Source of the DNA: an uncultured Anaerolineales bacterium
GTDB taxonomy: Bacteria; Chloroflexota; Anaerolineae; Anaerolineales; UBA11579
DNA: 53,975 nucleotides
Direction of reading: 5' to 3'
Assembly (NCBI GenBank): GCA_965370435.1
Contig: CBDUUP010000001.1
Location: 1 to 53,975, forward strand
In this document: positions 11,935 through 29,156 of the stretch, one piece after another
Layout: the number at the start of each line of letters is the position of its first letter
Position numbering within the stretch: the stretch's first letter is position 1
Notes under the pieces: model-generated
The model's database searches: none
What the model was told of the DNA's origin: nothing
Seen by the model: only the letters and a program-made list of their open reading frames with translations
Translations under genes and position numbers: made by a program

Positions 11935-12053
11935 GTTTCAATCTTTGTACAACATATAGCTTATCTATGCACTAAGTGGGCAAACACGCTCAATTGAACA
12001 AAGACGCTCATCTAATCTAGCCTCCGGTTCATCTCCCTAGCCCAAACGTCCTC

Positions 12054-12513: not shown

Positions 12514-12556
12514 AAAGTTAGAACGTTTAAACGTTCTAACGTTGAAACGTGTAACG
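12501..12556. repeat. AACGTT tile patch (A1) with 22-bp perfect palindrome
   Basis: Four AACGTT copies in ~45 nt. ttagaacgtttaaacgttctaa (12518-12539) is a perfect palindrome. The patch overlaps the mazG-like stop codon. Confidence 0.75.
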
Positions 12557-13657: not shown

Positions 13658-13660
13658 CCC

Positions 13661-14203
13661 ATGCGCGTCACCGTCTTCGGCGGTTCCAAACCCAAGCCGG
13701 GGGAAGCGGCTTACCTAGAAGCCCTGCATCTGGGGCGGCTGCTGGGAGAGGCGGACTGCACGGTGCTCACCGGCGGCTACATCGGGACCATGGAAGCGAT
13801 CTCGCGGGGGGCCAACGAGGCCGGGGGCCATGTCATCGGCGTCACCTGCGATCAGATCGAGTCCTGGCGTCCGTTGAAGTCCAATGATTGGGTGCAGGAG
13901 GAGATGCGCTTCCCCACCCTGCGCCAGCGCCTTTACGCCCTGATCGATGAGTGCCAGGCCGCCATCGCCCTGCCCGGCGGAATCGGCACCCTGGCGGAGA
14001 TCGCCATCATGTGGAGCCAGTTCCAAACCCACGCCAGCGCGCCCCGCCCGCTGATCCTGGTCGGCGAGGGCTGGCAGGCCACCTTCGACCAATTCACCGC
14101 CTCGTTAGGCGACTACGTCCCCCCAGAACATCTCCCCCTCCTGACCTTCGCCGACGACGTAGAAGCCGCCTTCAAAACCCTCCAGCAAATAACCAAAACA
14201 TGA
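13661..14203 (+). CDS. LOG/TIGR00725-type Rossmann-fold nucleotide-binding protein (possible nucleotide N-glycosidase)
   Basis: VTVFGGS, LTGGYIGTMEAISRGA and the ALPGGIGTLAEI (PGGxGTxxE) motif. The ATG lies 3 nt after the kinase stop. Confidence 0.7.
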   Translation: MRVTVFGGSKPKPGEAAYLEALHLGRLLGEADCTVLTGGYIGTMEAISRGANEAGGHVIGVTCDQIESWRPLKSNDWVQEEMRFPTLRQRLYALIDECQAAIALPGGIGTLAEIAIMWSQFQTHASAPRPLILVGEGWQATFDQFTASLGDYVPPEHLPLLTFADDVEAAFKTLQQITKT

Positions 14204-14235
14204 CCAAACAGCGCCCTTACGAGCTTAATCTTCAT

Positions 14236-14302
14236 CCTTGTCTACTTGTTTACCTGTTTCCCTGTCTACCCGCACTAACTAACTACCCAACTACCTAACT
14301 CC
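14236..14302. repeat. tile repeat, CTTGT/CTGTTT words followed by AACTA words (B1)
   Basis: ccttgtctacttgtttacctgtttccctgtctaccc followed by gcactaactaactacccaactacctaac. Confidence 0.55.
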
Positions 14303-14313
14303 TCCAAAATCCC

Positions 14314-15747
14314 ATGAGCGAAGACAAACTCCCCTCCCACAGCGATAATTTTTCCGACTGGTACAACCAACTGGTGGTCAAGGCCGAACTGGCCGACTAC
14401 GCCCCGGTGCGGGGCTGCATGGTGGTGCGGCCTTATGGCTGGGCCATGTGGGAAAACATCCAGAGCGCCCTGGACCGGCGGTTCAAGGCCACCGGCCACG
14501 TCAACGCCGCCTTCCCCCTGTTCATCCCCATGTCCTTCATAGAGAAGGAATCCCAGCACGTGGAGGGCTTCGCGCCGGAGTTGGCGGTGGTCACCCACGG
14601 CGGCGGCGAGGAGCTGACCGAGCCGCTGGTGGTGCGCCCCACCTCCGAGACCATCATCGGCTACTTCTACGCTAAATGGATCAAATCTTACCGGGACCTG
14701 CCGGTGCTCATCAACCAGTGGGCCAACGTGGTGCGCTGGGAAATGCGCACCAAGCTCTTCCTGCGCACCCTGGAATTCTACTGGCAGGAAGGCCACACCG
14801 CCCACGCCACCCACGAGGAGGCCGAAGAAGAAACCCTCCAGATGCTGGACATCTACGCCGACTTCGCGGTGAACGACGCGGCGGTCCCCGTTGTCCAGGG
14901 CCGCAAGACCGAGAGCGAGCGGTTCGCCGGGGCCTTGCGCTCCTACACCATCGAGGCCATGATGGGAGACAAACGCGCCCTGCAATCGGGCACCTCCCAC
15001 AACCTGGGACAGAACTTCGCCAAAGCCTTCGACATCCAATACCTGGACCGGAAGAATGACCTGATCCACTGCTGGACGACATCCTGGGGCCTCTCCACCC
15101 GCTTCATCGGGGCCATCATTATGACCCACGGCGACCAGCAGGGTTTGATCCTGCCGCCCAAGCTGGCCCCCATTCAGGCCGTCATCGTCCCCATTTACCG
15201 GGATGACGAAGCGAAAAGCGTGGTGATGCCGGTTGTAGAACGGATTGAGCGCGAGCTGGCCGACTTCCGGATCAAAGTGGACCACCGGGAGGAGGTCACC
15301 CCCGGATTCAAGTTCAACGATTGGGAGATGCGGGGCGTGCCTCTGCGCATTGAGATCGGCCCCAAAGACGTGGAGAAAAACAGCGTGGCCCTGGCTCGCC
15401 GGGATGTCCCCGGCAAGCAGGGCAAATCCTTCGTCCCTCAGGAGAACCTGGAGGCTCAGGTCGCCGAGATGCTGATCGAGATACAGGCCTCGCTTTACGA
15501 CCGAGCGCTGGCCTTCCGGGAGGCCAACACCCACGACACAAAAAACTACGCCGAATTCCAAGAGGCAGTCAAGGACGGTTGGGCCTTCGCCTGGTGGTGC
15601 GGCGACGCCGAGTGCGAGGCCAAGATCAAGGAAGAGACCAAAGCTTCCACCCGCTGCATCCCCCTGGAGCAACCCGGCGGGGAGGGGAAATGTGTTTACT
15701 GCGATAAACCGGCGGAGGAGAAGGTCTATTTTGCCCGCGCTTATTAA
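14314..15747 (+). CDS. proS: prolyl-tRNA synthetase, archaeal/eukaryote-like short type
   Basis: 477 aa. The N-terminus reads FSDWYNQLVVKAELADY..VRGCMVVRPYG. Class II motifs are present, and the C-terminal end is a Zn-type CVYC. Confidence 0.93.
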   Translation: MSEDKLPSHSDNFSDWYNQLVVKAELADYAPVRGCMVVRPYGWAMWENIQSALDRRFKATGHVNAAFPLFIPMSFIEKESQHVEGFAPELAVVTHGGGEELTEPLVVRPTSETIIGYFYAKWIKSYRDLPVLINQWANVVRWEMRTKLFLRTLEFYWQEGHTAHATHEEAEEETLQMLDIYADFAVNDAAVPVVQGRKTESERFAGALRSYTIEAMMGDKRALQSGTSHNLGQNFAKAFDIQYLDRKNDLIHCWTTSWGLSTRFIGAIIMTHGDQQGLILPPKLAPIQAVIVPIYRDDEAKSVVMPVVERIERELADFRIKVDHREEVTPGFKFNDWEMRGVPLRIEIGPKDVEKNSVALARRDVPGKQGKSFVPQENLEAQVAEMLIEIQASLYDRALAFREANTHDTKNYAEFQEAVKDGWAFAWWCGDAECEAKIKEETKASTRCIPLEQPGGEGKCVYCDKPAEEKVYFARAY

Positions 15748-15758
15748 CATTAATTTTC

Positions 15759-15787
15759 GTAGGGGCGACCCGCCGGGTCGCCCCTAC
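15759..15787. repeat. GC-rich REP-like hairpin (D1)
   Basis: gtaggggcgaccc-gcc-gggtcgcccctac gives a 13-bp perfect stem. No U-tract follows. Confidence 0.65.
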
Positions 15788-15807
15788 ACCATATCTTCCA
15801 TATCCCC

Positions 15808-16614
15808 ATGCCTGCGATACAACTAGAACGCCTCAAAGCCCAGGCCGCTGAACTGGCGGAGCATTTTGGCAGCCCAGCGGCCTTTGTCCATCGCCTCCAC
15901 GGCCTGCTGGACTTCTACGCCGACAGGACCCGCCGCCCCGGACTAACCGGCGCGCCGCCCCCCCTGATCCCGGCGTATCAGGCAGCCCCACCGGTGCTGC
16001 GCCAGGTCATCCGCGCATTGGCTCCCCAGGCCGCCAAAGATATTGAGGCCTCCCTGGCTCTGGCCGATGCCCTGTGGGCCGAAGACTACCTGGAATGCCG
16101 CCTATTGGCCGCCCAACTGCTGGGCGTCCTCTCCCCCTCCCCCTCCGAACCTATCCTGGAACGCGTGTCTGCCTGGGCGCAGGCGGAGCGAGAAGATCAG
16201 GCCCTGACAGCCCTGTTCAACCAGGGATTGGCCCCCATGATCGCCGAAAACCCGGATGCGGTCCTCGCTTTGGCGGACGGATGGCTCACCGCCACCCAGC
16301 GCAACGCCAAGATCCTGGGGCTGCGGGTTCTGGCCGCCCTGCTGGAAGACTCCAGCTTCGAGAACCTGCCCGCCGTGTTCCGCCTGCTGGGTCCCTCGGC
16401 GCAGAGCGCGCCCTCGGCCCTGCGCCCCCACTTGCTCAAGGTGATCCAGGCTCTGGCCCGCCGCTCCCCCCCGGAGACGGCCTTCTTCCTGCGGCAGACC
16501 CTTGCCCGGGAGTCCGGCGCGCCCGGCCCCGCTTGGCTGGCGCGCAAAAGCCTGGACGCCTTCCCCGAAGAGAACCAGATCAGTTTGAGGGAGGCGTTGA
16601 AGCGGGGGGGGTGA
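15808..16614 (+). CDS. hypothetical helical-repeat protein (HEAT-like, faint resemblance to AlkD-type DNA alkylation repair family)
   Basis: 268-aa Ala/Leu-rich ORF predicted to be all-alpha. No catalytic motif recognised. Confidence 0.35.
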   Translation: MPAIQLERLKAQAAELAEHFGSPAAFVHRLHGLLDFYADRTRRPGLTGAPPPLIPAYQAAPPVLRQVIRALAPQAAKDIEASLALADALWAEDYLECRLLAAQLLGVLSPSPSEPILERVSAWAQAEREDQALTALFNQGLAPMIAENPDAVLALADGWLTATQRNAKILGLRVLAALLEDSSFENLPAVFRLLGPSAQSAPSALRPHLLKVIQALARRSPPETAFFLRQTLARESGAPGPAWLARKSLDAFPEENQISLREALKRGG

Positions 16615-16668
16615 TGAGGTAGTTATCAGGCCAAAAATCCCATCCTCCCCAAATTCCCCCCTTTTTGG

Positions 16669-16677
16669 TGGTATAAT
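16669..16677 (+). promoter_or_regulatory. extended -10 element (TGgTATAAT) for rpsO
   Basis: tggtataat lies ~87 nt upstream of ATG 16764. Confidence 0.45.
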
Positions 16678-16763
16678 CTAGGCCGTTGACTCGACCGGTT
16701 GGCGGCTGATAAGGCTGCTGGCTAGGAGACCTGCTACAAAAACCAAAGGAGAAGGCAGACGTC

Positions 16764-17036
16764 ATGCCATTAGACAAAGAGATTAAAACCAAAGTAATTG
16801 AAGAGTATCACCGCCACGAGAACGACACCGGCTCGCCCGAAGTGCAGATTGCCATTTTGACCAACCGCATCACCCATCTCACCGGCCACCTGCAAGAGCA
16901 CAAGCACGACGAATCCTCCCGCCGGGGGCTGCTCAAGATGGTCGGGCGAAGACGGCGATTACTGCGCTATCTGCGCAACCAAGACTACCACGGCTACTTG
17001 GCGATCACCGACAGCTTGAAGATTCGCCGCAAATAA
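16764..17036 (+). CDS. rpsO: 30S ribosomal protein S15
   Basis: 90 aa. [49 protein letters not shown] is a classical S15 sequence. Confidence 0.95.
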
Positions 17037-17051
17037 CCTGTCACCCCGGAT

Positions 17052-17080
17052 AGATGGCGGTTTCCCCGCCATCTACTTTT
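17052..17080 (+). terminator. rpsO terminator/attenuator hairpin
   Basis: agatggcgg-tttcc-ccgccatct (9-bp stem) followed by acttttat. Confidence 0.6.
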
Positions 17081-17228
17081 ATCTACTGCGAATAGAAAAC
17101 AGCGATGCTTTGCAACCAACCGACCTGGGGGTTGCTTTAGCCGCCGGACCACAAGAATTTGAACTGACAGAAATTATATCCTTTATCCCCCCTAACTCTG
17201 CCCGATGGTTAGGCATTGGAGAGTGGGA

Positions 17229-17259
17229 ACAACGACTCAAGCTGTAAGACTGTCGTTGT
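17229..17259 (+). promoter_or_regulatory. stem-loop in pnp 5' leader (possible RNase III/autoregulation site)
   Basis: acaacgac (17229-17236) pairs with gtcgttgt (17252-17259). Function is assumed only by analogy with the E. coli pnp leader. Confidence 0.3.
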
Positions 17260-17309
17260 CCGCAGTTTCCAGTCCCTAACTAGGCGGGCCACCTCAATAG
17301 GAGCTACAG

Positions 17310-19514
17310 ATGAAACCCGAATCAAAGCAATACCAAGTCGAAGTGGGCGGTAAAACGCTCATCTTCGAAACCGGCACATTGGCCGAGCAAGCCGGAGGCG
17401 CTGTCACCGTGCGTCTGGGCGACTCGGTGATGTTCTGCGCCGCCACCATGGGCGATCCGCGACCCATCAATTTCTTCCCCCTCACCATAGACTACGAAGA
17501 ACGCCTGTACGCCGGCGGGCGCATCCCCGGCTCGTTTTTCCGCCGGGAGGGCCGCCCCACCGAGAACGCCATCCTCACGGCTCGTCTCACCGACCGCCCC
17601 TTGCGCCCGCTCTTCCCCAAGGACATGCGCAACGAAGTGCAGGTGATTCTCTATTCGTTCTCCGCGGACGGCGAAAACCTGCTTGACATCCTGGCGCTCA
17701 ACGCCGCCTCCACCGCGGTGATGATCTCCGACATCCCCTGGAATGGGCCGGTGGGCGCCGTGCGGGTAGGCCGGGTCGAAGGGGAATTCGTCATCAACCC
17801 CACCTACGCCGAACTAGAAGAATCCGACCTGGACCTGCGCCTGGCCGGAACCCGGGAGGCCATCCTGATGGTCGAGGCCGGGGCCTTAGAAGTCTCCGAA
17901 GAGGTGATGGTGGAGGCTCTGGAAGTAGGCCATAAGGCCATCCAGCCCATCATTGACCTCCAGCTTCAAATGGTCGCCGAGCTTGGCAAGGAAAAACGAG
18001 AATACCCTCCCGTCACCATAGAAGAGACCCTGTTGGAGGACGTTTTCGGGCGAACCGATGCCAAGCTTCAAGGCATCCTGGACCAAACATTGACCAAAGG
18101 CGAGCAAGTGAAAGCCACCAACGCCCTGCGAGACGAGATCGTGGAGGCCTTCACCGCTGAGAACGCCGAAATAACCGAAACTGAGATCAAGGACATCAAA
18201 GAGGCTTTCTACGCCGCCAACAAGAAGGTAGTGCGCAGCCGCATCCTGGATGAGGGCAAGCGCCCCGACGGACGCCAGGCCACGGACGTCCGGGCCATCT
18301 GGTCGGAGATCGAGATCAGCCCCAAAGCCCACGGCTCCGGCTTGTTCACCCGCGGCTCCACCCAGGTGCTGACTGTCGCCGCATTAGGCACCCCGCGGGA
18401 AGCCCAGATCATGGATAACCTGACCCCGGTGGAGACCAAACGCTTCATCCACCACTACAACTTCCCGCCCTTCTCCGTGGGCGAGGCCCGTTTCCTGCGA
18501 GGGGCTTCGCGCCGGGAGATCGGACACGGCCTATTGGCCGAGCGGGCCTTAATGCCCGTCATCCCCCCGGAAGACGAGTTCCCCTACACCATACGCCTGG
18601 TATCGGAGTGCCTTTCTTCCAACGGCTCCACCTCCATGGGATCGGTGTGCGGCTCTACACTGGCCTTGATGGACACCGGCGTGCCCATTAAAGCGCCGGT
18701 ATCGGGCATCGCCATGGGCTTGATCAAAGAAGGCGACAACTACGCCATTCTGAGCGACATCCAGGGCATGGAAGATCACCTGGGCGACATGGACTTCAAA
18801 GTAGCGGGGACCGACAAAGGCATCACCGCCCTGCAAATGGACATCAAAATCTCCGGGGTAACCCGGGAGATCATGACCCAGGCGCTGGCCCAGGCCAAAG
18901 AAGGGCGTTCCCACATCCTCAACAAAATGCTGGAAACCATCTCTGCCCCGCGCCCGGAACTGAAGCCCCACGTCCCCCGCATCACCACCATCAAAGTCCC
19001 CATTGAAAAGATCGGCGCCATCATCGGCCCAGGCGGGAAGAACATCCGAGCTTTGCAAGAGGAGACCAACACCAAGATAGACATCGGCGATGACGGCACC
19101 GTCTTCATCGCTGCCGTAGACGGCGAAGGGGAGGCTGCGGCCCGTGAGCGGATCGCCGCTCTCACCGAATCGCCCGAAATTGGCCGCATCTATACCGGCA
19201 AGGTCGTGCGCACCACCGATTTCGGCGCTTTCGTCGAGATCCTGCCCGGTACCGACGGGCTGGTCCACATCTCCCAATTGGACAGCGAGCGGGTTGAAAA
19301 GGTGGAAGACATCGCCCGGCTGGGCGAAGAGATCACCGTGATGGTGACCAACATAGACCCCATGGGCAAGGTGCGGCTCTCCCGCCAGGCGGTGTTGGAA
19401 GGCTGGACCGCCGAGGAAGCCCGCGAGCGCGATAAACCCAAGCGCAGCAGTGGAGGCGGCCGACGCCAGGGCGGACGGCGGGGCGGCGGCGACCGAAACC
19501 GCAACAGACGCTAG
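17310..19514 (+). CDS. pnp: polynucleotide phosphorylase
   Basis: 734 aa with two RNase PH domains, then KH ([16 protein letters not shown]) and S1 ([23 protein letters not shown]). An Arg/Gly-rich C-terminal tail is present. Confidence 0.95.
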
Positions 19515-19539
19515 GCTAGTTAGACTTAACCAATCTAAA

Positions 19540-19573
19540 AGAGCGAGGCCGTTTCCGGTCTCGCTCTTTTTTT
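19540..19573 (+). terminator. intrinsic terminator of pnp
   Basis: agagcgag...ctcgctct forms the stem, with inner gcc/ggt pairs. Seven T follow. Confidence 0.75.
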
Positions 19574-19590
19574 CGCGCCCAGGCAAACAT

Positions 19591-19631
19591 AAAAGACCCC
19601 TCCCGCATGGCAACGGCGGGAGGGGTTTCTT
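19591..19631. terminator. bidirectional hairpin terminator
   Basis: cccctcccgc (19597-19606) pairs with gcgggagggg (19616-19625). An A-run lies on the left and a T-rich run on the right. It serves the minus-strand gene ending at 19656. Confidence 0.6.
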
Positions 19632-19655
19632 AATTCAAGCTATCTTGATCTGGGA

Positions 19656-21713
19656 TCAACCCCCCAGCAACCAAGCGACGGCGTTGAGGGCCAAGAGGGA
19701 TTGCATGTCCTCAGGAAAACGGTAGAGGGCGACCAAGGCGATGACCAGGCGTTGGTCTACCACATTGTCATGAATGGCGACGACGACGGGCACTCCAGAT
19801 TGGGGACTTGAGGGACCCCGAGATAAGATCAGGCCAATATCTGCGTCAAACCCGGCAAATAAGCTTTCATCGAAAATATAGGCCGGGGCGCCGCTCTGGG
19901 AGGGAGAAAGAGAGATCACCGCGCCGCTCCCTAACCCAGCGCCCAGGGGATGGAATGCATCGGTAACTTCAAGGTCGCTGAGAGCGGCAGTATTCCCCAT
20001 AGGGAAAGACTGGCTGCCCATGAACATGATAGGTCCTTCAACCAGAAGCATTGATAAGATGGTATTGAAATCATCTTCGTTGTTAATGAAGTCGATAACG
20101 GAATCTCCAGAGTCGTAGATATGCAGGTCATAGCCTATCAGGTCATTCTCGGTAGGGATGCCGTCCAGACTGGTGGACCATATCGTCACGTCATAGGAAG
20201 CGCCCAGGATGAGGGATAATTCTGCCGCGCTGTTGCGGCCGCCCCCTGAGCCGTCATCATCGGAGAGGATGAAGATACTCCCGCCCGCGCCGCCTGTGCC
20301 GCCGTTTCCGTCGTCCGTATCGGTGTCCAGGCCGCCGGTAGGAGCTTTCCCAGTGGAGCAGAGCATCACCGCGCCGGTTTCCACACAGCCGCCGAAATCA
20401 TCGTACAGCAGCCGCTCCAAAGCTTCAATGGCTGTCTCGCCATCTTCCGCCAGAGCCAGGACCACGATCTGGTCGCCGCTGCGATCCACGATGAACAGGG
20501 TGATGCCTTCCAGTTCAAGAGCGCCCAACCCGGCCACATGGACGGTGCCTTCATTCAGTTCAATGGCGACATCGGCGGTCTCCAGATAGCCTTCCACCGA
20601 CTCTAGATCACTGTAGGTGCCCACCAGGAGCGCATCGTGGCTGGGGTCAGCTTGGTCGGTCAGGCGGAGGGAAAGTCCCGCCTGGGCAAACAGCGCTTGC
20701 AGGTTGTCCATGCGCACCACCAGCCGCGGGTCGATCACCTCTCCGGCGATCTGGGACAGGTCAACCGGTTTTTCGTAGAGATAGGGGAATTCGGTCAGAG
20801 ACCAGTCCCGGGTGTCGGTCGCCAGCCAGTCGGCGATGTTGCTCATGAAGCGGTCGTTATCGGCGATGGTGTTGTAGGGCGCGATGAGGAAGGTCAGGTC
20901 GCCCAGGGCCAAGAAACGGCCCTCGCCGGCCAGGACCGCCGGAGTGAGTCCAGTCTCCCCGGTACGGATGGGCGATAGGGTATCGTCATCGCCCAGGATG
21001 AGCGGCGGGGACTCAGTTTTCAGGGAGTGAGCGGCGAAGAATACCACCTTATCCAGCCCGTCGGTGAGGGCGTTATCCTCAGGGAAGGTGGAAAAGCCCA
21101 CGTTGCGGTAATTGCCTTCGTTCACCACCAGGTTGTAGAGATAGTCGTTGTAGTAGGTGACCCCGAAGAGTTCGGCCAGGCTGTTGGCCGCCGGGACCGC
21201 GCTTTCGGGGAACAGGGCGGAGTACAGATCCTGGTACTGGGGTTCTATGATCGTAGCGGTGCGGGTGGGGTCAGCCACCAGAAGCACCCGCCCGCCGTCG
21301 GCCACGAAGTCCAGCAAGGCGGTTTGTTCGACGGGGGTGAAGATGTAGGTGGGGGCCAGCACAACGTAGGCGGAGGCTCCCCGCAGCGCGTCGGCCAGCT
21401 TGCCAGTCCCTTCATGCACTTCAACCACCGCGCCCCGCGCAGCCAAACGGTCGCGCAGCGGGGTCAGGTCGTCAATCCTCAGGTTGTTTCGGTGATCCAT
21501 ATCTATGACCACCCGCCCGCCCTCCGCCAGAGCTACGTCCTGATAAGGATTGTATTCCGGCGGGGCGGCGATGATGTCATCCACGTCCAGGGTGGCGATC
21601 TCGGGGGCAGCGTATCCGCCCCGGTGGAAGATGAGCCATCGTCCGCCAAAAGGCAGGATGAATAGGAAGGCGAGCAGAAGCAAGAACACCAGGTTAGTTA
21701 TCGTTTTCTTCAT
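19656..21713 (-). CDS. exported protein, DUF4350/GldG-like N-terminal domain
   Basis: 685 aa with an N-terminal signal anchor. The segment YVVLAPTYIFTPVEQTALLDFVADGGRVLLVADP is typical of that fold. Its ATG overlaps the sppA stop (ATGA). Confidence 0.45.
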   Translation of the reverse strand: MKKTITNLVFLLLLAFLFILPFGGRWLIFHRGGYAAPEIATLDVDDIIAAPPEYNPYQDVALAEGGRVVIDMDHRNNLRIDDLTPLRDRLAARGAVVEVHEGTGKLADALRGASAYVVLAPTYIFTPVEQTALLDFVADGGRVLLVADPTRTATIIEPQYQDLYSALFPESAVPAANSLAELFGVTYYNDYLYNLVVNEGNYRNVGFSTFPEDNALTDGLDKVVFFAAHSLKTESPPLILGDDDTLSPIRTGETGLTPAVLAGEGRFLALGDLTFLIAPYNTIADNDRFMSNIADWLATDTRDWSLTEFPYLYEKPVDLSQIAGEVIDPRLVVRMDNLQALFAQAGLSLRLTDQADPSHDALLVGTYSDLESVEGYLETADVAIELNEGTVHVAGLGALELEGITLFIVDRSGDQIVVLALAEDGETAIEALERLLYDDFGGCVETGAVMLCSTGKAPTGGLDTDTDDGNGGTGGAGGSIFILSDDDGSGGGRNSAAELSLILGASYDVTIWSTSLDGIPTENDLIGYDLHIYDSGDSVIDFINNEDDFNTILSMLLVEGPIMFMGSQSFPMGNTAALSDLEVTDAFHPLGAGLGSGAVISLSPSQSGAPAYIFDESLFAGFDADIGLILSRGPSSPQSGVPVVVAIHDNVVDQRLVIALVALYRFPEDMQSLLALNAVAWLLGG

Positions 21714-22603
21714 TTCTCACCTCCCAGCCGCACGTCGTAGAGCAAGTAGATGCCCGGCGGCAGGTTGCGCTCCCGGGTCACCGGGTCGGCGGCGCCGACC
21801 CAGGGATCCGCCTGGTAATAGTAGAGGTCGCCGTAGATCTCTTCGTAGATGATGGCTTCGATGTCGATCACTTCATAATTGATGATCTTGGCCTGGGCGG
21901 CGGCTTCGGCAATCGCGTCCGCCTGGGTGCCGATAGCATCAATCAGTCCCAGCATGACGGCCTCCCGCCCGGCGTAGGCCAGGCCCTGGGTGATCTCATC
22001 ATCGGCCATGGTCAGCCGGTCGCCTCGCTGGCTGGTCACGGTTTCCAGGAACTCTCGCTTGATGCCTTCAATCTCCCGGGAGAATTCTTCCGGGTTGGTG
22101 GCGGAGAGTTTGAAGGGGCCGCTGGCCAGAACCAGGTCGTTGACGGCGTATTCATAGGGGAAGTAGCCCCACACGCCGACGTTGCCCACCGTGGAGGAGG
22201 GCATGGCGTAGATGGGGTCGGCGGCCATGGCGGAGTAGTAGCCTCCGCTGGCGGCCCAACTGCCTATCACGCCGACCACCGGCATCTCGGCTCGCAGGCT
22301 CTGCACGGCGAGGAAGATCTTCTGGGTGGAGACCACGCCCCCGCCGGGGGAGTCGATGACGAAGACCACCGCTTTCACCTGGGGCATCTCGCGGACTTTC
22401 TCGACTTGAGCGATCAGGTAATCGGCAGTGAACGAATAGATGTCGCCTTCCAGCTTGATGATGCCGACCGCCGGGCGGGGCACCACCTTTCGCGACAGCC
22501 ACCAGCCCAACATCAGGACCACAATGAGGATGAGTATCCTCCACAGCAGTCCCCAGCCAGAGGCGGACGAGGGGGGAGTTTGTTCAATCGTCTCAGTTTC
22601 CAT
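21710..22603 (-). CDS. sppA: signal peptide peptidase SppA (S49 family, 36K type)
   Basis: VFVIDSPGGGV and WAASGGYY motifs. ATG 22603 is preceded by AAGGAGAAAGG. ATG 22654 is the alternative. Confidence 0.8.
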   Translation of the reverse strand: METETIEQTPPSSASGWGLLWRILILIVVLMLGWWLSRKVVPRPAVGIIKLEGDIYSFTADYLIAQVEKVREMPQVKAVVFVIDSPGGGVVSTQKIFLAVQSLRAEMPVVGVIGSWAASGGYYSAMAADPIYAMPSSTVGNVGVWGYFPYEYAVNDLVLASGPFKLSATNPEEFSREIEGIKREFLETVTSQRGDRLTMADDEITQGLAYAGREAVMLGLIDAIGTQADAIAEAAAQAKIINYEVIDIEAIIYEEIYGDLYYYQADPWVGAADPVTRERNLPPGIYLLYDVRLGGEK

Positions 22604-22677: not shown

Positions 22678-22695
22678 AATGTTGCGGGGAAATGG
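22678..22695. repeat. 18-bp direct repeat, copy 1 (aatgttgcggggaaatgg)
   Basis: Identical to 22968-22985. Confidence 0.85.
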
Positions 22696-22760
22696 GCGGG
22701 TTGCAGATTGGAAGGTTGAACGTTGAAGGTTGGCAAGTTGCAAATTGCAGGTTATGGTGT
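22696..22760. repeat. tile repeat, left inverted arm of the SIR2-TPR bracket (A2)
   Basis: It contains ttggaaggttgaacgttgaaggttg (22708-22732). The exact reverse complement lies at 24951-24975. Confidence 0.8.
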
Positions 22761-22830: not shown

Positions 22831-22936
22831 GGGTGCAGTTCAGTTTAGGGGTAATCGGCGACTGAAGTCGCACCAACAACTGCGAAGTCCGCCCCTTCGG
22901 GGTGAACCTCAGGACGAGGCCTTCGGCGGACTGAAA
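22831..22936. repeat. partial copy (E1) of the foldback element at 27185-27352
   Basis: gggtgcagttcagttt matches the start of E2. gcgactgaagtcgcaccaacaactgcgaagtccgcc matches 27221-27256 at 34 of 36 positions. The right half of the element is missing. Confidence 0.65.
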
Positions 22937-22967
22937 TCTCTTGTAGTCGGCGAAGGCTGGCTTGGTT

Positions 22968-22985
22968 AATGTTGCGGGGAAATGG
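22968..22985. repeat. 18-bp direct repeat, copy 2
   Basis: Identical to 22678-22695. Confidence 0.85.
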
Positions 22986-23000
22986 AAATTAGTGTATATT
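22972..23000 (+). promoter_or_regulatory. candidate promoter TTGCGG-N17-TATATT for SIR2-TPR gene
   Basis: The spacing is 17 nt. GGAG SD at 23026-23029. Confidence 0.3.
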
Positions 23001-23037
23001 ATTGAGGAGAATAGTAGCTAAAGGCTTGGAGACTGAT

Positions 23038-24843
23038 ATGCAACGATCACTTGACGATGTTGTCGAAACCCTCAAAAAAGCTAGAGAACGAGAGAGAAAA
23101 TGTGCACTGTTGATTGGCGCGGGATGTTCGGTCAAGGCGGGGATTCCTCTCGCCGGTGAATTTGTTGAAATTATCGAAAAACAATTTTCTCGCGCCTACC
23201 GCCGGGCAGAGAAAAATGGTGATGTTAGCTATCCTCACTGTATGCATGAAATTGCGCCAGGCGATAGGCATGATCTCATCGCCAAATATGTTGACGAGGC
23301 CAAGATCAACTGGGCGCACGTCGGCATCGCCCAATTAATGAAATTTGGCTACGTTGACCGCATTCTGACCACCAATTTCGACCCCCTCATTGTGCGAGCG
23401 TGTGCGTTAGTGGGCATTTTCCCCGCAGTTTACGATTTTGCCGCCTCACAAAGTTTCGATCCTGCCAGGATTAAAGGGCAGGCTATCTTCTACCTGCACG
23501 GCCAACGTTCGGGCTTCAAAATCTTGAACACCCCTGAAGAATGCGATATCCTTTCTACCCACCTTGCCCCCGTTTTCCAGGACGCTGGAAGCGGGCGGTC
23601 CTGGATCGTGGTGGGCTATAGCGGAGAAAATGACCCCGTCTTTGACCAATTGGCAGACGTTGAGTGCTTCGACCACAACCTTTATTGGGTGGGTAATAAG
23701 GATAACGAACCCGCTCTCCACTTACGAGAGCGTTTGCTGATCTCTGGTAAATACGCCCATTATGTCAATGGCTTTGACGCCGATGATTTCTTCGTCACTC
23801 TGGCACAGAAACTAGGTTGCTTTCCTCCCGATTTTGTGGGAGAACCTTTCACCCACCTGGATAATTTATTAGAAATGGTCACGCCCTATACGCTTCCTGG
23901 TCAAGATGCTGAAACGGATGTCACAAAAGACGCTCGTGACTTGATACAACGCGCGATTGAACGCTACGAAAGCGTGCCGGAGGTTATTGAACCGGAAGTA
24001 GCACTGGATGCTGTATCAACCACGGCGATGAAACTGCAATCTGTGCTCATGGCCGGAAAATATGATGAAATCATCGCCCAGGTCGCTGGAAGGGAAGGAG
24101 AGCTACCACCAGAATTCGTTTACTCTGTTACCTGGGCTTACGTTTATCAGGGCGATGCGCTCTCTGACCATGCCCTGACCAAATCCGGCCAAGAAGCCGA
24201 CCAACTCTTCGAACTAGCCGGGCAGAAATACCAGGCTGCCCTCGATATCAAACCCGATATGGACGAAGCCCTCTACAACTGGGGCAATGCGCTCTCTGAC
24301 CATGCCCTGACCAAATCCGGCGAAGAAGCCGACCAACTCTTCAAACTGTCCAGGCAGAAGTACCGGACTGCCTTCGATATCAAACCCGGCGACTTCGATA
24401 CTCTCTACAACTGGGGCTTTGTGCTCTCTGACCATGCCCGGACCAAATCCGGCGAAGAAGCCGACCAACTCTTTGAACTGGCCGGACAGAAATACCAGGC
24501 CGCCCTCGTTATCAAACCTGACGACCATGTTGTTCTCGACAATTGGGGAATGGCACTAAACGAGCAAGCCAAGACCAAGACAGGGAAGGAAGCCGACCGC
24601 CTTTACAAGGAGGCCAGGGAAAAATGTACACGAGCCAACGAAATTTCCCCAGGAAGTGGGTCGTACAACCTGGCTTGTCGCAGCGCGTTGATCGGCGAGG
24701 AAGAGGAATGCCGAAAATGGCTGGAGGACGCCTATCAACATGGGGAACTTGAATCTCGCGAGCACCTGGAGAACGATTCAGACATGGACAGCGTGCGTGA
24801 GAGGGAGTGGTTCAAGGAGTTTCTGGCGAAATTGGATGGGTGA
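23038..24843 (+). CDS. SIR2-like (SIR2_2-type) domain fused to TPR-like repeats
   Basis: N-terminal LLIGAGCSVKAGIPLAGEF, ILTTNFDPLI, FYLHGQ and VVGYSGENDP. The C-terminal part has 44-aa units (ALSDHALTKSGEEADQLF...YNWG) and a capping helix pair. The gene is visibly lower in GC than its flanks. Confidence 0.8.
   Translation: MQRSLDDVVETLKKARERERKCALLIGAGCSVKAGIPLAGEFVEIIEKQFSRAYRRAEKNGDVSYPHCMHEIAPGDRHDLIAKYVDEAKINWAHVGIAQLMKFGYVDRILTTNFDPLIVRACALVGIFPAVYDFAASQSFDPARIKGQAIFYLHGQRSGFKILNTPEECDILSTHLAPVFQDAGSGRSWIVVGYSGENDPVFDQLADVECFDHNLYWVGNKDNEPALHLRERLLISGKYAHYVNGFDADDFFVTLAQKLGCFPPDFVGEPFTHLDNLLEMVTPYTLPGQDAETDVTKDARDLIQRAIERYESVPEVIEPEVALDAVSTTAMKLQSVLMAGKYDEIIAQVAGREGELPPEFVYSVTWAYVYQGDALSDHALTKSGQEADQLFELAGQKYQAALDIKPDMDEALYNWGNALSDHALTKSGEEADQLFKLSRQKYRTAFDIKPGDFDTLYNWGFVLSDHARTKSGEEADQLFELAGQKYQAALVIKPDDHVVLDNWGMALNEQAKTKTGKEADRLYKEAREKCTRANEISPGSGSYNLACRSALIGEEEECRKWLEDAYQHGELESREHLENDSDMDSVREREWFKEFLAKLDG
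24157..24552 (+). repeat. 3 x 132-bp tandem coding repeats (4th, diverged unit to ~24684)
   Basis: Units start at 24157, 24289 and 24421. The first 54 nt of each unit are nearly identical. Confidence 0.85.
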
Positions 24844-24868
24844 TTGAGGTTCATATCTCAGTGCGATC

Positions 24869-24896
24869 AACGCCGTGTGGGGGAGCGGCGTTTTTT
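24869..24896 (+). terminator. intrinsic terminator of SIR2-TPR gene
   Basis: aacgccg pairs with cggcgtt across a 10-nt loop, followed by TTTTTT. Confidence 0.6.
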
Positions 24897-24911
24897 CTTT
24901 TCCCCCCACAA

Positions 24912-24986
24912 ACATCATTTGCCACTTGCAACTTGCCACTTGCCAACCTGCAACCTTCAACGTTCAACCTTCCAACTTTCAACCCT
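24912..24986. repeat. tile repeat, right inverted arm of the SIR2-TPR bracket (A3)
   Basis: It contains caaccttcaacgttcaaccttccaa (24951-24975) plus cttgcc words that mirror 22733-22752. Confidence 0.8.
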
Positions 24987-27145: not shown

Positions 27146-27184
27146 GCTATTAATCACACCCGGCTAAAGCCTCGACTCCTCCTC

Positions 27185-27352
27185 GGGTGTAGTTCAGTTT
27201 TGGGGTGTTTGGAGCACACAGCGACTAAAGTCGCACCAACAACTACGAAGTCCGCCCTTCGGCGGACTAAAACATCATCAAATCGGCGCAGACCGACTTC
27301 GTAAACATTTGAATGACTAAAGTCACTCAAACCCTCAAACTGAAATACACCC
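27185..27352. mobile_element. 168-bp foldback, MITE-like non-coding element (E2)
   Basis: The terminal inverted repeat is gggtgtagttcagttttg paired with caaactgaaatacaccc. Internal hairpins are gcgac-taaa-gtcgc, gtccgcc-cttc-ggcggac and tgac-taaa-gtca. The left and right halves are mutually complementary. A partial copy lies at 22831-22936. Confidence 0.6.
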
Positions 27353-27537
27353 ATCCTCCATATTCCCCTAATCCCTAATAACCTAATCCCCTCCCCTACT
27401 CGCTCGTCGGCAGCCAGGGCATATACTTTTTTGTTCAAAATTTTTAATTTCACTATTTTGCCTATTTCAACGCACATTGAAATTTATTGTAGCAGTGAAA
27501 TCATGATTTACCAAAAATCATTGTGATTCAGCGTTTC

Positions 27538-29091
27538 CTACCCACTCGTCGGCAGTCTGGGCATCTCCGGCCCTTCCACGCCCAGGTGTTCAGCCAACGC
27601 CGCCTTGAGCGCGGTGCGGTCATCCCAGAGATGTTCGACCTCGCCGAAGCACATAGATTGCTCATGGCCCTTGCCCAGAGCCAGCACCAGGTCGCCAGGT
27701 TGGGCCTGCGCCACCGCAAAACGGAGGGCCTTTCCCCGGTCGGGGATGCGCCAGAAAGTCTCCCCCTCCACGCCCCCGCGAGAGTCTGCGCCCGCCGCCA
27801 TCTCCGCCAGGATGTCTTCCAGGGATTCGGTGCGGGGGTCTTCGGCGGTGAGGATGGTCAGGTCGGCCAATTCAGCGGAGACTTTGGCCATCATGCGGCG
27901 TTTCTCCCGGTCCCGCAAACCCGCCGAACCGAACACCGCGATCACCCGACCGCCGGTCAACCCGCGGCCAGCTTTCAGGACATTTTTCAGGGCGTTGGGC
28001 GTATGGGCAAAATCCACAATGGCGGTGAAATCCTGCCCCATGTCAATCTGCTCCATGCGGCCCGGCACGCCCGGCAGAGCGGCGATACCGGCCTGGGCGG
28101 CTTCTGCAGCCAGCCCCAGCCCCTCCACCGCGGCCCCAATCGCCGCCAGACAGTTGGCGGCGTTGTACTCTCCCATCAACTGGGTTTCAATGGGCAATTT
28201 ATACCCCGGCCCGATCAAGTCGAAGCGCAGGCCCAGCAATGTAGAGGCCACATTTTCAGCCCGCAGGTCAGCCTCCGGATGCAGGCCGACGCTCACCTGG
28301 CGGACCGTCGTCATCGCAGCCAGATAAGCATAGGAGTCATCATCCCGGTTGAGGACCGCCAATCGCGGGTTGCCGCCCGCCTTCTCCGGCGTCTCGGCCA
28401 GCCCGGTGAACAGCCCGGCCTTGGCCTCCCGATAAGCCTCAAAGCTGCCGTGATAATCGAGATGCTCGTGGGTGATATTGGTGAGCACACCCACGTCGAA
28501 GGCGCAGGCTGTGACCCGGCCCTGCGCCAGGCCGTGGGAGGTGACCTCCAGCACGACGTGGGTCAAGCCCGCCTCTGCCATTTGGGCCAGGTAGCGCTGC
28601 ACGTCGGGCGCTTCGGGCGTGGTGACGTGGAAGCCGGTGTCCAATTCCTGGCCGCCGATCACCGCGCTGACAGTCGTTATCATGCCCGCTTTTATCCCCG
28701 CGTTGAGCAATATCTGGTAGATCATATTGCCGGTGGTTGTCTTGCCGTCGGTGCCGGTGACGCCGATCACCGTCATCTTATGCGCTGGGAAACCGTAGAA
28801 CGCCGCCGAGAGATACGCCAGAGCCTCCCGGCTATCCTGCACTTGCACGTAAGGGATCGCCAACTCCCCCGGCGGCCGGGTTCCAACCACCGCCGCCGCC
28901 CCCCGTTCAATCGCATCGGGTATAAAGCGATGCCCATCCACCCGCTCCCCTTCAATCGCCACAAACAAATTCCCCGCCTTCACCTCCCTCGAATCCAACA
29001 CCACCCCCGTCACCTCCACCCCCTCCGGCGCCCCCGAAAGCGCCTCTACAGGAATATCACCCAACAAATCCGCCAAATCCGCAGCCATCAC
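27538..29091 (-). CDS. murE: UDP-N-acetylmuramoyl-L-alanyl-D-glutamate--diamino-acid ligase
   Basis: 517 aa with VIGVTGTDGKTTT. The overall layout is Mur ligase, and the C-terminal substrate motif reads EDPR. Confidence 0.9.
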   Translation of the reverse strand: MMAADLADLLGDIPVEALSGAPEGVEVTGVVLDSREVKAGNLFVAIEGERVDGHRFIPDAIERGAAAVVGTRPPGELAIPYVQVQDSREALAYLSAAFYGFPAHKMTVIGVTGTDGKTTTGNMIYQILLNAGIKAGMITTVSAVIGGQELDTGFHVTTPEAPDVQRYLAQMAEAGLTHVVLEVTSHGLAQGRVTACAFDVGVLTNITHEHLDYHGSFEAYREAKAGLFTGLAETPEKAGGNPRLAVLNRDDDSYAYLAAMTTVRQVSVGLHPEADLRAENVASTLLGLRFDLIGPGYKLPIETQLMGEYNAANCLAAIGAAVEGLGLAAEAAQAGIAALPGVPGRMEQIDMGQDFTAIVDFAHTPNALKNVLKAGRGLTGGRVIAVFGSAGLRDREKRRMMAKVSAELADLTILTAEDPRTESLEDILAEMAAGADSRGGVEGETFWRIPDRGKALRFAVAQAQPGDLVLALGKGHEQSMCFGEVEHLWDDRTALKAALAEHLGVEGPEMPRLPTSG

Positions 29092-29105
29092 TCTTTACCT
29101 TATAT

Positions 29106-29156
29106 CCTTGTTTACTTGCACACTTGCCTACTTGCCTGCTTGCCTGCTTGCACACC
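29106..29156. repeat. tile repeat, CTTGC/CTTGT family (B2)
   Basis: ccttgtttacttgcacacttgcctacttgcctgcttgcctgcttgcacacc. Confidence 0.6.

Follow-up and report, generated by a model that had tools for sequence, protein, structure and literature searches.

A SIR2-TPR fusion protein from an Anaerolineales bacterium, a candidate stand-alone, ligand-triggered NADase

The window analysed here, a stretch of 53,975 nucleotides from an uncultured Anaerolineales bacterium, is core genome, with genes for ProRS, PNPase, MurE, ATP synthase and Nuo. One gene, flanked on its left by the sppA operon and on its right by ArsR and MFS, encodes an N-terminal SIR2 domain joined to a C-terminal array of TPR units; its neighbours in the window are genes for an S49 peptidase, DUF4350, ArsR, MFS and MurE. 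The features of the locus are as follows.

22698..22753, no strand assigned: upstream heptamer tandem array, left arm of an inverted repeat (repeat search, TRF)
22972..23000, plus strand: weak, putative sigma-70-type promoter, TTGCGG-17 nt-TATATT
23028..23031, plus strand: GGAG Shine-Dalgarno sequence, read from the sequence
23038..24843, plus strand: complete SIR2-TPR coding sequence, 601 aa and stop codon (ORF list, translation, homologue N-termini; codon positions checked)
23089..23814, plus strand: SIR2_2 (SIRim-type) Rossmann NADase domain, residues ~18-259 (Pfam, PADLOC, invariant columns, SPARSA alignment, Foldseek)
23116-23130, plus strand: GAGCS motif, residue 27
23374-23376, plus strand: codon for Asn113, catalytic by motif match
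23380-23382, plus strand: codon for Asp115, catalytic by motif match
23497-23499, plus strand: codon for His154, catalytic by motif match
23614-23634, plus strand: GYSGEND motif, residue 193
23815..24084, plus strand: conserved post-SIR2 helical extension and hinge, residues 260-349 (N-module profile, AF2)
24085..24660, plus strand: four 44-residue Tom20-type TPR hairpins, residues ~350-541 (Pfam, PDB profile matches, AF2)
24664..24825, plus strand: C-terminal TPR 'end-of-group' cap, residues 543-596 (NCBIfam NF047558 TPR_END_plus)
24869..24902, plus strand: intrinsic-terminator-like hairpin (8 bp, 5 GC) and T-rich tail (terminator scan and sequence)
24913..24985, no strand assigned: downstream heptamer tandem array (AACNTKC-type units), right arm of the inverted repeat (repeat search, TRF)

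The reading frame, which ends at 24843 on the plus strand, could start at TTG 23002 or ATG 23038. The ATG, from which the 601 aa are counted, is favoured because the N-termini of homologues agree with it, sharing an M-x-R-x-x-DDVVET start, and because the GGAG lies 6 nt upstream. The single 601-aa frame and the Shine-Dalgarno sequence reported in the original prediction are thus both present. The claim that the gene has its own promoter is weak, as the proposed hexamers match at 8 of 12 positions and fell below the threshold of a promoter scan, which did not call them. As for the terminator that had been proposed, the hairpin exists (24869-24892, 26 nt past the stop codon) and is followed by TTTTTCTTTTC, but terminator-like sites show no excess in the region (3 observed against 2.9 in shuffled sequences).

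The SIR2-TPR gene is a horizontally acquired, compositionally foreign singleton. Its GC content and GC3 are 0.517 and 0.558, compared with 0.612 and 0.806 for sppA, 0.563 and 0.750 for ArsR and 0.609 and 0.789 for MFS, in keeping with the lower GC previously noted relative to sppA and ArsR; it is the difference in GC3 (0.56 against 0.73-0.81 in neighbouring genes) that leads us to conclude that the gene was acquired horizontally. An 'empty site' was sought via orthologues of the S49 peptidase (at most 61% identical), but insertion boundaries could not be defined, synteny in these relatives being confined to the S49-DUF4350 pair.

The flanks had been described as repeat or mobile-looking DNA, and the repeats are real. 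The two heptamer arrays, one on either side of the gene, pair as an inverted repeat (56 nt, 79%); exact copies of the 19-mer GGTTGAACGTTGAAGGTTG are confined to the upstream array and, in inverted orientation, to 24951-24969, while weaker matches with 3 mismatches lie at 24944-24962 and 46423. An exact 18-mer is present twice, at 22678 and 22968, and a dispersed element of ~135 nt (22831-22985) is found again between MFS and MurE. A related heptamer array also lies at 46422-46476, the window contains many further 7-8-nt arrays of like kind, and neither a transposase nor an integrase was found next to the gene. Because the same repeat types recur and no such enzyme is adjacent, the flanking repeats provide no evidence of a mobile cassette, and a reading of the inverted repeat as transposon ends was rejected. 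A gene-specific leader or riboswitch upstream was also rejected: the upstream element (22838-22972) folds on the plus strand no better than shuffles (z = -0.8) and, having a second copy, is read as a dispersed REP/MITE-like repeat. When the whole window was scanned against Rfam at gathering thresholds there were zero matches, so that the upstream DNA corresponds to no known RNA.

The N-terminal domain resembles the SIR2 enzymes of immune systems. The Pfam SIR2_2 model (PF13289) matches residues 108-208 at 30.3 bits (gathering score 24.5), and the best PADLOC profiles are Aga_SIR2, a pAgo-associated SIR2 (1e-21), and PDC-S65 (2.6e-21, residues 18-259). In addition to GAGCS and GYSGEND, the GIP, TTNFD and YLHG motifs are found where they had been predicted (residues 35, 111 and 152), and in an alignment the SIR2 motifs match those of the SPARSA SIR2 one-to-one. 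None of the 50 aligned homologues departs from Asn113, Asp115, His154 or the GYSG..D motif, and GAGCS is nearly invariant. The AF2 model of the protein has a pLDDT of 90.2 and a pTM of 0.84; its top Foldseek matches in the PDB are SPARSA SIR2-APAZ, DSR2, ThsA, Avs5 and KomBC, while a search of viral structures returned nothing but generic TPR or Sel1 proteins. Profile and fold searches thus place the domain inside the SIR2 fold and bear out its assignment to the SIR2_2 type. An assignment to the canonical sirtuin deacylases (CobB/Sir2) is contradicted by the missing Cys4 zinc module, there being no CxxC pairs in the protein (cysteines at 22, 30, 68, 122, 169, 210, 261, 530, 547 and 558), and by the scores of the CobB-type deacylase models of NCBIfam, which at 13-19 bits fall far short of cut-offs of 220-395. 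These comparisons of sequence and model support an immune NADase-type SIR2 fold (SIR2_2/SIRim) whose set of catalytic residues is intact.

The SIR2 domain is followed by a helical extension, which up to residue ~312 is part of a conserved N-module; the profile of this module covers residues 1-312 in essentially all of the best 150 family representatives. In the AF2 model the extension consists of helices at 265-278, 297-311, 319-338 and 342-349 with a low-confidence hinge (pLDDT <50) at 316-319, giving a linker of roughly 90 aa (~265-349), close to the ~100 aa of the original estimate. The array scores 34.8 bits with TPR_11 (cut-off 26.8) and 41.6 bits with TOM20_plant (cut-off 20.6) in Pfam, and its profile matches in the PDB are TOM20-3 (1zu2, 4.7e-10) and consensus TPR proteins; with both parts above curated cut-offs, the fusion of SIR2 to TPR is confirmed. 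The NWG spacing is 44 residues, and three TPR units are visible in the DNA as a 132-nt tandem repeat (24132-24527, 77-83% identical). Four long helix hairpins (358-536) and a capping bundle (542-598) in the AF2 model fit the estimate of about five TPR-like units, and the cap is matched by TPR_END_plus at 41.6 bits (cut-off 32). Matches to the Pfam TPR-S 'sensor' repeat are weak. An NTPase is absent, as had been claimed, with no Walker A in the protein and no NTPase family match in Pfam, NCBIfam or PADLOC.

The N-module defines a large family, with at least 831 cluster representatives (50% identity clusters) at E<=1e-30 and ~99 matches among 185,579 species representatives at 45-67% identity. 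It is spread patchily over many bacterial phyla and Methanosarcinaceae/ANME archaea and is concentrated in Planctomycetota, Acidobacteriota, Chloroflexota, Myxococcota and Alphaproteobacteria. Many full-length homologues have 600-680 aa. Behind the same N-module (residues 1-312) homologues carry between 1 and 11 TPR units, the window protein with three clean 44-residue repeats being among the shortest members; the TPR_END_plus cap is present in 88 of 134 family representatives, and ~28% have another helical C-terminus. The same TPR array also follows a ParA-like ATPase (P0047). Conservation of the 44-residue repeat scaffold across phyla is unusually high, and a comparison of homologues found unit positions 3, 6, 7, 40 and 43, which match the concave face, to be variable. 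The variable number of units, the swapped C-termini, the occurrence of the array behind another enzyme and the variable concave-face positions together suggest a sensor-like C-terminus, and the TPR array is probably the sensor of the SIR2 enzyme.

There is some published context for these proteins. One study observed that bacterial proteins of the SIRim clade are 12-fold enriched near defence systems and mentioned TPR-like fusions in eukaryotic sirims (bioRxiv 10.1101/2024.09.18.613514); TPR-fused SIR2_2 proteins appear elsewhere as labels in a tree legend only (PMC12700824). Our literature search found no work on the SIR2-TPR architecture and no experimental test of any family member.

The genomic surroundings of the homologues were surveyed at 75 chromosomal loci, of which 73 were scanned with PADLOC after two duplicates were set aside; the scan covered the two nearest genes per side (255 neighbour proteins), with ORFs called by a crude heuristic in high-GC MAGs, which limits its sensitivity. 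PADLOC matches among these 255 proteins at 73 loci amounted to a handful, mostly generic (kinases, AAA ATPases), and within this scope no enrichment of defence islands was found; by Pfam, neighbours were mostly housekeeping genes. Clustering of neighbours within 6 kb on either side at the 75 loci revealed no conserved partner gene, the most recurrent neighbour being a sigma-54 response regulator (7 of 75 loci), a member of a huge family. Neighbours differ from locus to locus. The original prediction had named consistently housekeeping contexts as evidence against it, and here the survey cuts both ways: the neighbours are indeed housekeeping genes, but the contexts are all different, unlike those of a core operon. 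Since there is no single conserved housekeeping operon, a mobile singleton fits these contexts better than a core function does, and low GC3, the patchy family and the differing neighbours all point to accessory, mobile behaviour.

Mobile elements carry more distant relatives. A tblastn search of phage and plasmid records did not find the close (>45% identity) Tom20-TPR subfamily, and a ~40%-identical Firmicute subfamily is the sole branch of these seen on phages or plasmids. Bacillus-type prophages carry relatives that are 35-42% identical from residue 1 to ~370, in the vicinity of genes for a phage sigma factor, DNA methyltransferase, terminase and portal; an example of a prophage-borne relative is WP_286119681 (NZ_CP128151), and on one contig the gene directly follows tail-fibre and endolysin genes. 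A 41%-identical Bacillus relative, whose alignment runs through residue 367, shares a Bacillus albus plasmid with a full-length PDC-S65 gene, the two lying head-to-head. Prophage carriage and adjacency to this PADLOC candidate link relatives at ~40% identity to phages and to a candidate defence gene, in favour of the original prediction. Distant single genes with SIR2 and TPR, or SIR2 and an unknown domain, lie beside a Haloferax pleolipovirus integrase and between cI and int in a Vibrio prophage-like element.

We hold it to be slightly better than an even chance that the protein is a ligand-triggered, DSR2-like NAD-depleting abortive-infection protein that works alone. As an immune-class sirtuin (SIR2_2/SIRim) it would unite sensor and effector in one cytosolic chain, encoded by a gene that arrived horizontally and was inserted between the sppA operon and the ArsR/MFS pair. 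At rest the N-terminal SIR2 would be catalytically competent and held inactive. The Tom20-type TPR solenoid may then bind a protein or a peptide, in the likeliest case a protein that a phage produces during infection, and binding would rearrange the SIR2 domains or alter their oligomerisation, as in DSR2, ThsA, SPARSA and Avs5. NAD+ hydrolysis would thereby be switched on and NAD+ depleted, with the result that infection is aborted or growth arrested. The NADase activity, its activation by a ligand, the identity of that ligand and the anti-phage phenotype are what we infer from the analysis. Against a defence role stand the lack of a defence-island signal, the core-genome window and the failure to see the >45%-identity subfamily on phages or plasmids.

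A non-immune, NAD+-dependent regulator is the alternative that survives best, though we regard it as unlikely. Here the TPR array would recruit a conserved host protein or peptide, and the SIR2 domain would deacylate or ADP-ribosylate the target or, as a switch for stress or dormancy, lower NAD+. The host ligand might, for example, be the tail of a chaperone or a protein induced by stress. Short peptides are bound by Tom20-type TPRs, and the array matches 1zu2; the very high conservation of the repeat scaffold across phyla suits a conserved endogenous ligand and counts against the abortive-infection reading; and the neighbourhoods are predominantly housekeeping without defence enrichment. However, the SIR2 domain belongs to the SIR2_2/SIRim clade and not to the deacylase clade; it lacks the zinc module, and its CobB-type scores are low. 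Contexts vary by locus with no single conserved operon, a core regulator would not usually show such strong signs of horizontal transfer or so patchy a spread, and relatives are carried on prophages.

This prophage carriage, which points to phage-phage or phage-host conflict, also weighs against a second alternative, which we find distinctly unlikely: that the protein is a NADase 'death switch' of conflict or programmed cell death that is not phage-specific, acting on its own against other mobile elements or in kin or colony-level conflict among bacteria of complex lifestyle, with the TPR array sensing a non-viral cue. The concentration of the family in the five groups named above and the weak TPR-S matches are consistent with such a role, as is one locus (L008) that adjoins caspase/CHAT/trypsin genes and several transposases. 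PIN toxins make up 3 of 132 nearest neighbours, and other toxin-antitoxin genes occur occasionally within 10 kb of homologues. However, a context like that of L008 was seen at only one of ~75 loci, and there is no conserved partner or antitoxin. It is very improbable that the gene is an inactive remnant, either decaying after transfer or a pseudo-enzyme scaffold without NAD chemistry, because despite a weak promoter and a repeat array among the shortest in the family its frame is intact over 601 codons, every catalytic and NAD-binding motif is kept, the structure model is confident and full-length homologues are many.

If the family is an active ligand-triggered NADase, as in the abortive-infection reading, it would be a compact ~600-aa addition to the SIR2 defence repertoire and would extend NAD-depletion immunity to Chloroflexota, Planctomycetota, Acidobacteria and methanogenic/ANME archaea, phyla in which very few defence systems have been tested. 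A wider reading we hold with more reserve, at a little under an even chance: SIR2-Tom20-type-TPR proteins may be unrecognised, widespread one-protein immune receptors of environmental bacteria and archaea, an uncatalogued defence family in which a variable-copy TPR array directly senses a protein of a phage or other invader and triggers a pAgo-type SIR2 NADase with no need of an ATPase, a nucleotide signal or a partner. In that case the prophage-borne Firmicute branch would be a tractable experimental model. The near-identical 44-residue units, with few variable positions and variable copy number, should allow specificity to be probed easily by repeat swapping, which could help to understand or engineer solenoid gating of SIR2 without an ATPase. 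The missing defence-island context is a caution, either that guilt-by-association screens may miss singletons or that the role is non-immune.

Among known systems, the closest SIR2 by profile (1.5e-11 and 1e-10), PADLOC (1e-21) and structure is that of SPARSA SIR2-APAZ (8in8, 8jl0), with an identical TTNFD and matching GAGxS, HG and GYSG motifs. The window protein differs in having no APAZ, residues 75-226 aligning to profile positions 89-247 of 558. An Argonaute gene is absent from the window and not conserved in the 75 homologous loci; the sensor of SPARSA is a guide-loaded pAgo, whereas that of the window protein would be the TPR array. The PADLOC candidate PDC-S65 is likewise a single-gene SIR2_2 protein of similar length (592-position profile) with a homologous SIR2 half, but only profile positions 29-290 of 592 are matched and the C-terminal halves are unrelated; a true PDC-S65 member matched positions 16-588 at 2e-204. 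Avs5 and other SIR2-STAND proteins share a SIR2 effector with a TPR-type sensor, and Avs5 chains were matched by Foldseek, but the window protein has no STAND NTPase between effector and sensor, so nucleotide-dependent oligomerisation cannot drive its activation. Thoeris ThsA has the same SIR2_2 NADase fold (7uxt, 8btp by Foldseek); it differs in that neither the window protein nor its neighbours contain a SLOG/STALD domain or a TIR (ThsB). SIR2-HerA differs too: no HerA-type ATPase gene adjoins this one in the window, and no neighbour family recurs from locus to locus.

In overall design the protein resembles DSR2 of Bacillus subtilis, which combines SIR2 with a HEAT-like solenoid and is activated by a phage tail-tube protein (PMC11850899; bioRxiv 10.1101/2021.12.14.472415); binding of the tail tube to the solenoid opens the NAD pocket of the SIR2 tetramer (PMC11850899). 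Both are single polypeptides, acting alone in the case of DSR2 and by proposal in ours, and neither has an ATPase; each starts with a SIR2 domain bearing the catalytic Asn and His, continues through a helical segment and ends in an alpha-solenoid. DSR2 chains are among the best Foldseek matches, yet with a TM-score of ~0.32 that largely reflects the SIR2 part, and DSR2 has ~1000 aa and HEAT-like repeats, in contrast to 601 aa and 44-residue Tom20-type TPRs with an end cap. No DSR1 or DSR2 profile was among the nine PADLOC matches at E<=1. PADLOC-DB v2 includes models of both. A solenoid sensor with a SIR2 effector and no ATPase is a concept already established by DSR1 and DSR2, and the ATPase-free minimal sensor-effector put forward in the original prediction is therefore not a novel idea, DSR2 being such a protein. 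The SIR2-TPR protein itself is outside every named system that could be tested.

The SIR2-TPR gene lies in a long plus-strand reading frame that opens at 23002 (TTG) or 23038 (ATG) and ends with the stop codon at 24841-24843. We take the ATG as the start because a GGAG Shine-Dalgarno sequence, as originally predicted, stands 6 nt upstream and because the N termini of homologues agree: M-x-R-x-x-DDVVET, matching the ATG start, is found at the N terminus of 50 homologues. The product is 601 aa long and joins a SIR2 domain to TPR units. All motifs of the original prediction could be located (GAGCS at residue 27, GIP at 35, TTNFD at 111, YLHG at 152 and GYSGEND at 193), and the claim that it contains no NTPase holds, with zero Pfam, NCBIfam or PADLOC NTPase families and zero Walker A motifs in the protein. 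An AlphaFold2 model was made from a 50-sequence alignment (mean pLDDT 90.2, pTM 0.84).

Domain anatomy of the SIR2-TPR protein (window 23038-24843, plus strand)
Residues 108-208, Pfam SIR2_2, 30.3 bits (cut-off 24.5)
Residues 393-419, Pfam TPR_11, 34.8 bits (cut-off 26.8)
Residues 434-544, Pfam TOM20_plant, 41.6 bits (cut-off 20.6)
Residues 543-596, NCBIfam TPR_END_plus, 41.6 bits (cut-off 32)
To residue ~260, alpha/beta Rossmann domain, AlphaFold2 model
Residues 265-349, helical extension with a low-confidence hinge at 316-319, AlphaFold2 model
Residues 358-536, four long helix hairpins, AlphaFold2 model
Residues 542-598, capping bundle, AlphaFold2 model

The hairpins are 44-residue TPR variants, with 'NWG' at 414, 458 and 502 (spacing exactly 44), and three of the units form a 132-nt tandem DNA repeat (window 24132-24527, 77-83% identity). 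Four modelled hairpins and a capping bundle make "about five TPR-like units" a fair count. The "~100-aa helical linker" is also a fair description, but its first half, to residue ~312, belongs to the conserved N-terminal module.

The SIR2 domain has an immune-type fold. By sequence profile, its nearest solved relatives are the SIR2-APAZ proteins of SPARSA (short-pAgo) systems (8in8, 8jkz and 8jl0; E 1e-10 to 1.5e-11), in which TTNFD is identical and GAGxS, HG and GYSG correspond. Foldseek against the PDB placed SPARSA SIR2-APAZ first, followed by DSR2, ThsA, Avs5 and KomBC, all of them SIR2 proteins of defence systems. The best PADLOC profiles, pAgo-associated SIR2 (1e-21) and PDC-S65, a candidate single-gene SIR2 defence protein (2.6e-21), matched the SIR2 part only. 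Deacylase (CobB) models reached only 13-19 bits on the window protein versus cut-offs of 220-395, and inspection of its cysteine positions showed that the Cys4 zinc module is absent. Because of the defence-SIR2 matches, the low CobB scores and the absence of the Cys4 module, we assign the domain to the SIR2_2 or 'SIRim' class, whose bacterial members are reported to be enriched 12-fold near defence systems (bioRxiv 10.1101/2024.09.18.613514).

A homologue search of 5.8 billion proteins gave >1,188 matches, the best 120 of which share the architecture at 38-61% identity and 547-1024 aa; source names among the homologues are few ('SIR2 family protein' or 'TPR end-of-group domain-containing protein'). 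When a profile of the N-module (the SIR2_2 domain plus conserved helical extension), built from residues 1-330, was run against 1.84 billion cluster representatives, 4,680 proteins matched at E<=1e-3 and 831 at E<=1e-30, and the best 150 matches all reached profile position ~312. C-terminal modules are swapped in this family: among N-module representatives of >=420 aa, the 44-residue Tom20-type unit is present in 97/134 and the end cap in 88/134, the remaining representatives having other TPR types or helical regions without a Pfam match. NWG units number 1-11 per protein, the window protein lying at the short end. The same Tom20-type array (seven matched stretches) occurs behind a ParA/MinD-like P-loop ATPase in P0047, a metagenomic protein of 963 aa; as the ATPase there replaces SIR2, the TPR module is portable between N-terminal domains. 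Across 718 repeat units, W1, G2, L5, A9, G14, A17, L20, A24, K27, Y28, A31, P36 and N44 are almost fixed, and positions 3, 6, 7, 40 and 43, which map to the concave face of helix A by alignment to a canonical TPR, are variable. Since several outer-face positions are likewise variable, this is weak evidence for variable ligand contacts.

In composition the gene is foreign and, as predicted, lower in GC than its sppA and ArsR neighbours (0.517 versus 0.612 and 0.563).

Composition of the SIR2-TPR gene and its neighbours
SIR2-TPR gene, GC 0.517, GC3 0.558
sppA-like S49 peptidase gene, GC 0.612, GC3 0.806
ArsR gene, GC 0.563, GC3 0.750
MFS gene, GC 0.609, GC3 0.789
MurE gene, GC 0.641, GC3 0.774

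The surrounding genes have core functions (ProRS, PNPase, DUF4350-S49, ArsR, MFS, MurE, ATP synthase a and Nuo subunits); together with the foreign composition, this marks the gene as a singleton that entered a core region by horizontal transfer. Where a terminator was predicted there is a terminator-like hairpin (24869-24892) followed by TTTTTCTTTTC, 26 nt past the stop codon. The proposed promoter sequence (TTGCGG-17-TATATT, 22972-23000) is there, but it agrees with the consensus at only 8/12 positions and was not called by a promoter scan. Similarly, the repeats behind the description of the surroundings as mobile-looking exist, but their array type recurs across the window and no transposase or integrase lies near the gene in the window; given the core neighbours as well, there is no demonstrable mobile cassette and no defence island.

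Repeats in the window
22678-22695 and 22968-22985, exact 18-nt direct repeat AATGTTGCGGGGAAATGG
22698-22753 and 24930-24985, 56-nt inverted repeat (79%) bracketing the SIR2-TPR gene
22831-22985 and 27196-27320, hairpin-rich dispersed element of ~135 nt, copies 77% identical with a 27-nt indel
9829-9884, 10908-10980, 11900-11940, 12502-12550, 22701-22753, 24919-24984, 29113-29155, 46216-46282, 46422-46471, 49016-49065 and 49149-49232, short tandem arrays

Both arms of the inverted repeat are heptamer tandem arrays, and arrays resembling them, with units of 7-8 nt, recur at 9829, 11900, 12502, 29113, 46217, 46422, 49018 and 49149. Short arrays (7-8-nt or 14-16-nt units, related AAC/GTT-rich motifs) are many in the window, apparently mostly intergenic, and seem to represent a class of short tandem repeats found throughout the genome; two pairs of copies are mutually inverted (29090-29134 and 46219-46263; 22708-22739 and 46438-46469). 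The 18-nt repeat flanks a 272-nt segment containing the upstream heptamer array and the REP-like element, and could be a duplication from insertion of that segment; the putative -35 box of the SIR2-TPR gene overlaps with its second copy. The dispersed element, with hairpins GCGACTnAAGTCGC and GAAGTCCGCC...GGCGGACT, is REP/MITE-like; Rfam gave zero matches, this element included. Its second copy folds far better than shuffles (z = -3.4) and lies where the MFS and MurE genes converge, in a gap of low GC (~0.48; 27154-27477) whose sole ORF (107 aa) is of doubtful coding status. Elsewhere, tandem paralogous segments of ~1.8 kb (49649-50603 and 51452-52406, 75-78% identical; a third, partial, at 53872-53971, running to the contig end) are probably a tandemly duplicated gene family, and repeats of period 135-144 nt (CCGATAGTGTCCACCCCGTCGCCGTCCCAGTCGCC...) within a coding region at 46483-47063 would, on the reverse strand, encode GDWDGDG-type calcium-binding or FG-GAP-like repeats.

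Among 185,579 species (one genome per GTDB species) there were 99 relatives, with N-module identities of 43-67%, in Planctomycetota, Acidobacteriota, Chloroflexota, Alpha- and Deltaproteobacteria, Nitrospirota, Actinomycetota and Myxococcota and, among archaea, in Methanosarcinaceae and ANME. A distribution so patchy, and extending over two domains, is consistent with horizontal transfer. At seven annotated homologue loci the gene is solitary with different neighbours every time, and ORF clustering within 6 kb at 75 loci gave no recurrent partner gene. PADLOC found isolated matches only (PDC-S02, PD-DExK, IetA, DpdF, mad6/8, MkoA and PD-T4-6 kinases) among 132 nearest and 123 second-nearest neighbour proteins, whose Pfam families are mainly housekeeping; at these chromosomal loci no enrichment of defence genes was found. 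To the letter, these are the housekeeping contexts that the original prediction named as refuting it, but they all differ, as expected for a mobile singleton, and there is no conserved housekeeping operon. Only L008 of the seven loci adjoins caspase/CHAT/trypsin genes and transposases; it differs from the other contexts in being a conflict-system or mobile island. In its flanks (1-8889 and 13549-22433), CHAT, caspase (Peptidase_C14) and several trypsin-like protease genes lie on one side and at least five transposase/integrase genes on the opposite side. At three related Acidobacteriota loci (two Pyrinomonadaceae), a divergent isochorismatase-family gene lies 28-280 bp upstream of SIR2-TPR.

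Isochorismatase-family genes, divergent to SIR2-TPR
L022, 9122-9709
L023, 3111-3725
L025, 1138-1773

The isochorismatase family includes nicotinamidases, and the adjacency may reflect a nicotinamide-salvage link or plain inherited synteny.

Close homologues were absent from GenBank phages and PLSDB plasmids. Relatives are carried by prophages: a Firmicute branch, 35-42% identical to the window protein from residue 1 to ~367-464 and bearing TLNFD, HLHGQ and GYSGNND, occurs in six low-GC IMG/VR prophage contigs, adjoining phage sigma factor, transcriptional activator and DNA methyltransferase genes, with terminase and portal genes 3-5 kb away. In a seventh IMG/VR contig, a related 805-aa protein is encoded directly 3' of tail-fibre and endolysin genes, which is a typical accessory-gene position. 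A Bacillus albus megaplasmid (L089, NZ_CP128151) has two different single-gene SIR2 proteins head-to-head (5781-7541 and 7968-9950), a full-length PDC-S65 (2e-204) and a 41%-identical Firmicute-branch relative of the window protein, and appears to be a small defence locus rich in SIR2 genes; a helicase-domain gene lies ~6 kb from the pair. More distant single genes of similar size include a SIR2+TPR gene adjoining the integrase of Haloferax pleolipovirus Halfgib1 and a SIR2 gene flanked by cI and int in a Vibrio prophage-like element.

DSR2, which consists of SIR2, a middle domain and a HEAT-like solenoid, forms a tetramer in which tail-tube bound to the solenoid opens the NAD pocket (PMC11850899; 10.1101/2021.12.14.472415). 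By analogy, the TPR solenoid of the window protein would bind an invader protein, and this ligand would trigger relief of autoinhibition or oligomerisation of the SIR2 domains; their presumed NADase activity would then deplete NAD+, with abortive infection as the phenotype. On balance, we lean towards this DSR2-like mechanism. A rival reading, a non-immune, NAD-dependent regulator acting on a conserved host ligand, is favoured by the housekeeping surroundings and by the strong conservation of the TPR repeat scaffold, but we consider it unlikely. A broader conflict or cell-death switch seems somewhat less probable again. N113, D115, H154 and G193-Y-S-G...D199 are invariant and GAGCS nearly invariant in 50 full-length homologues, the catalytic set of the window protein is intact, and an inactive remnant is very improbable.

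No work on a bacterial single-gene SIR2-TPR system turned up in full-text literature searches, and mention of TPR-fused SIR2_2 proteins is limited to labels in a tree legend (PMC12700824). A specialist would hardly be surprised by the architecture, which is a plausible one. Even so, the family is large, is common in phyla that have received little study and is missing as a system from PADLOC v2. The window protein, which has neither ATPase nor partner gene, is closest to SPARSA SIR2-APAZ in its SIR2 domain but lacks APAZ and pAgo; it differs from Avs5 in having no STAND NTPase, from Thoeris in having no SLOG domain or ThsB partner, and from SIR2-HerA in having no HerA, and it matches PDC-S65 in the SIR2 half only. 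Compared with DSR2 and DSR1, it has no DSR profile match in PADLOC, its solenoid is of another type and its length is ~40% less. By analogy, the protein would function most like DSR2 or DSR1, yet it belongs to neither.
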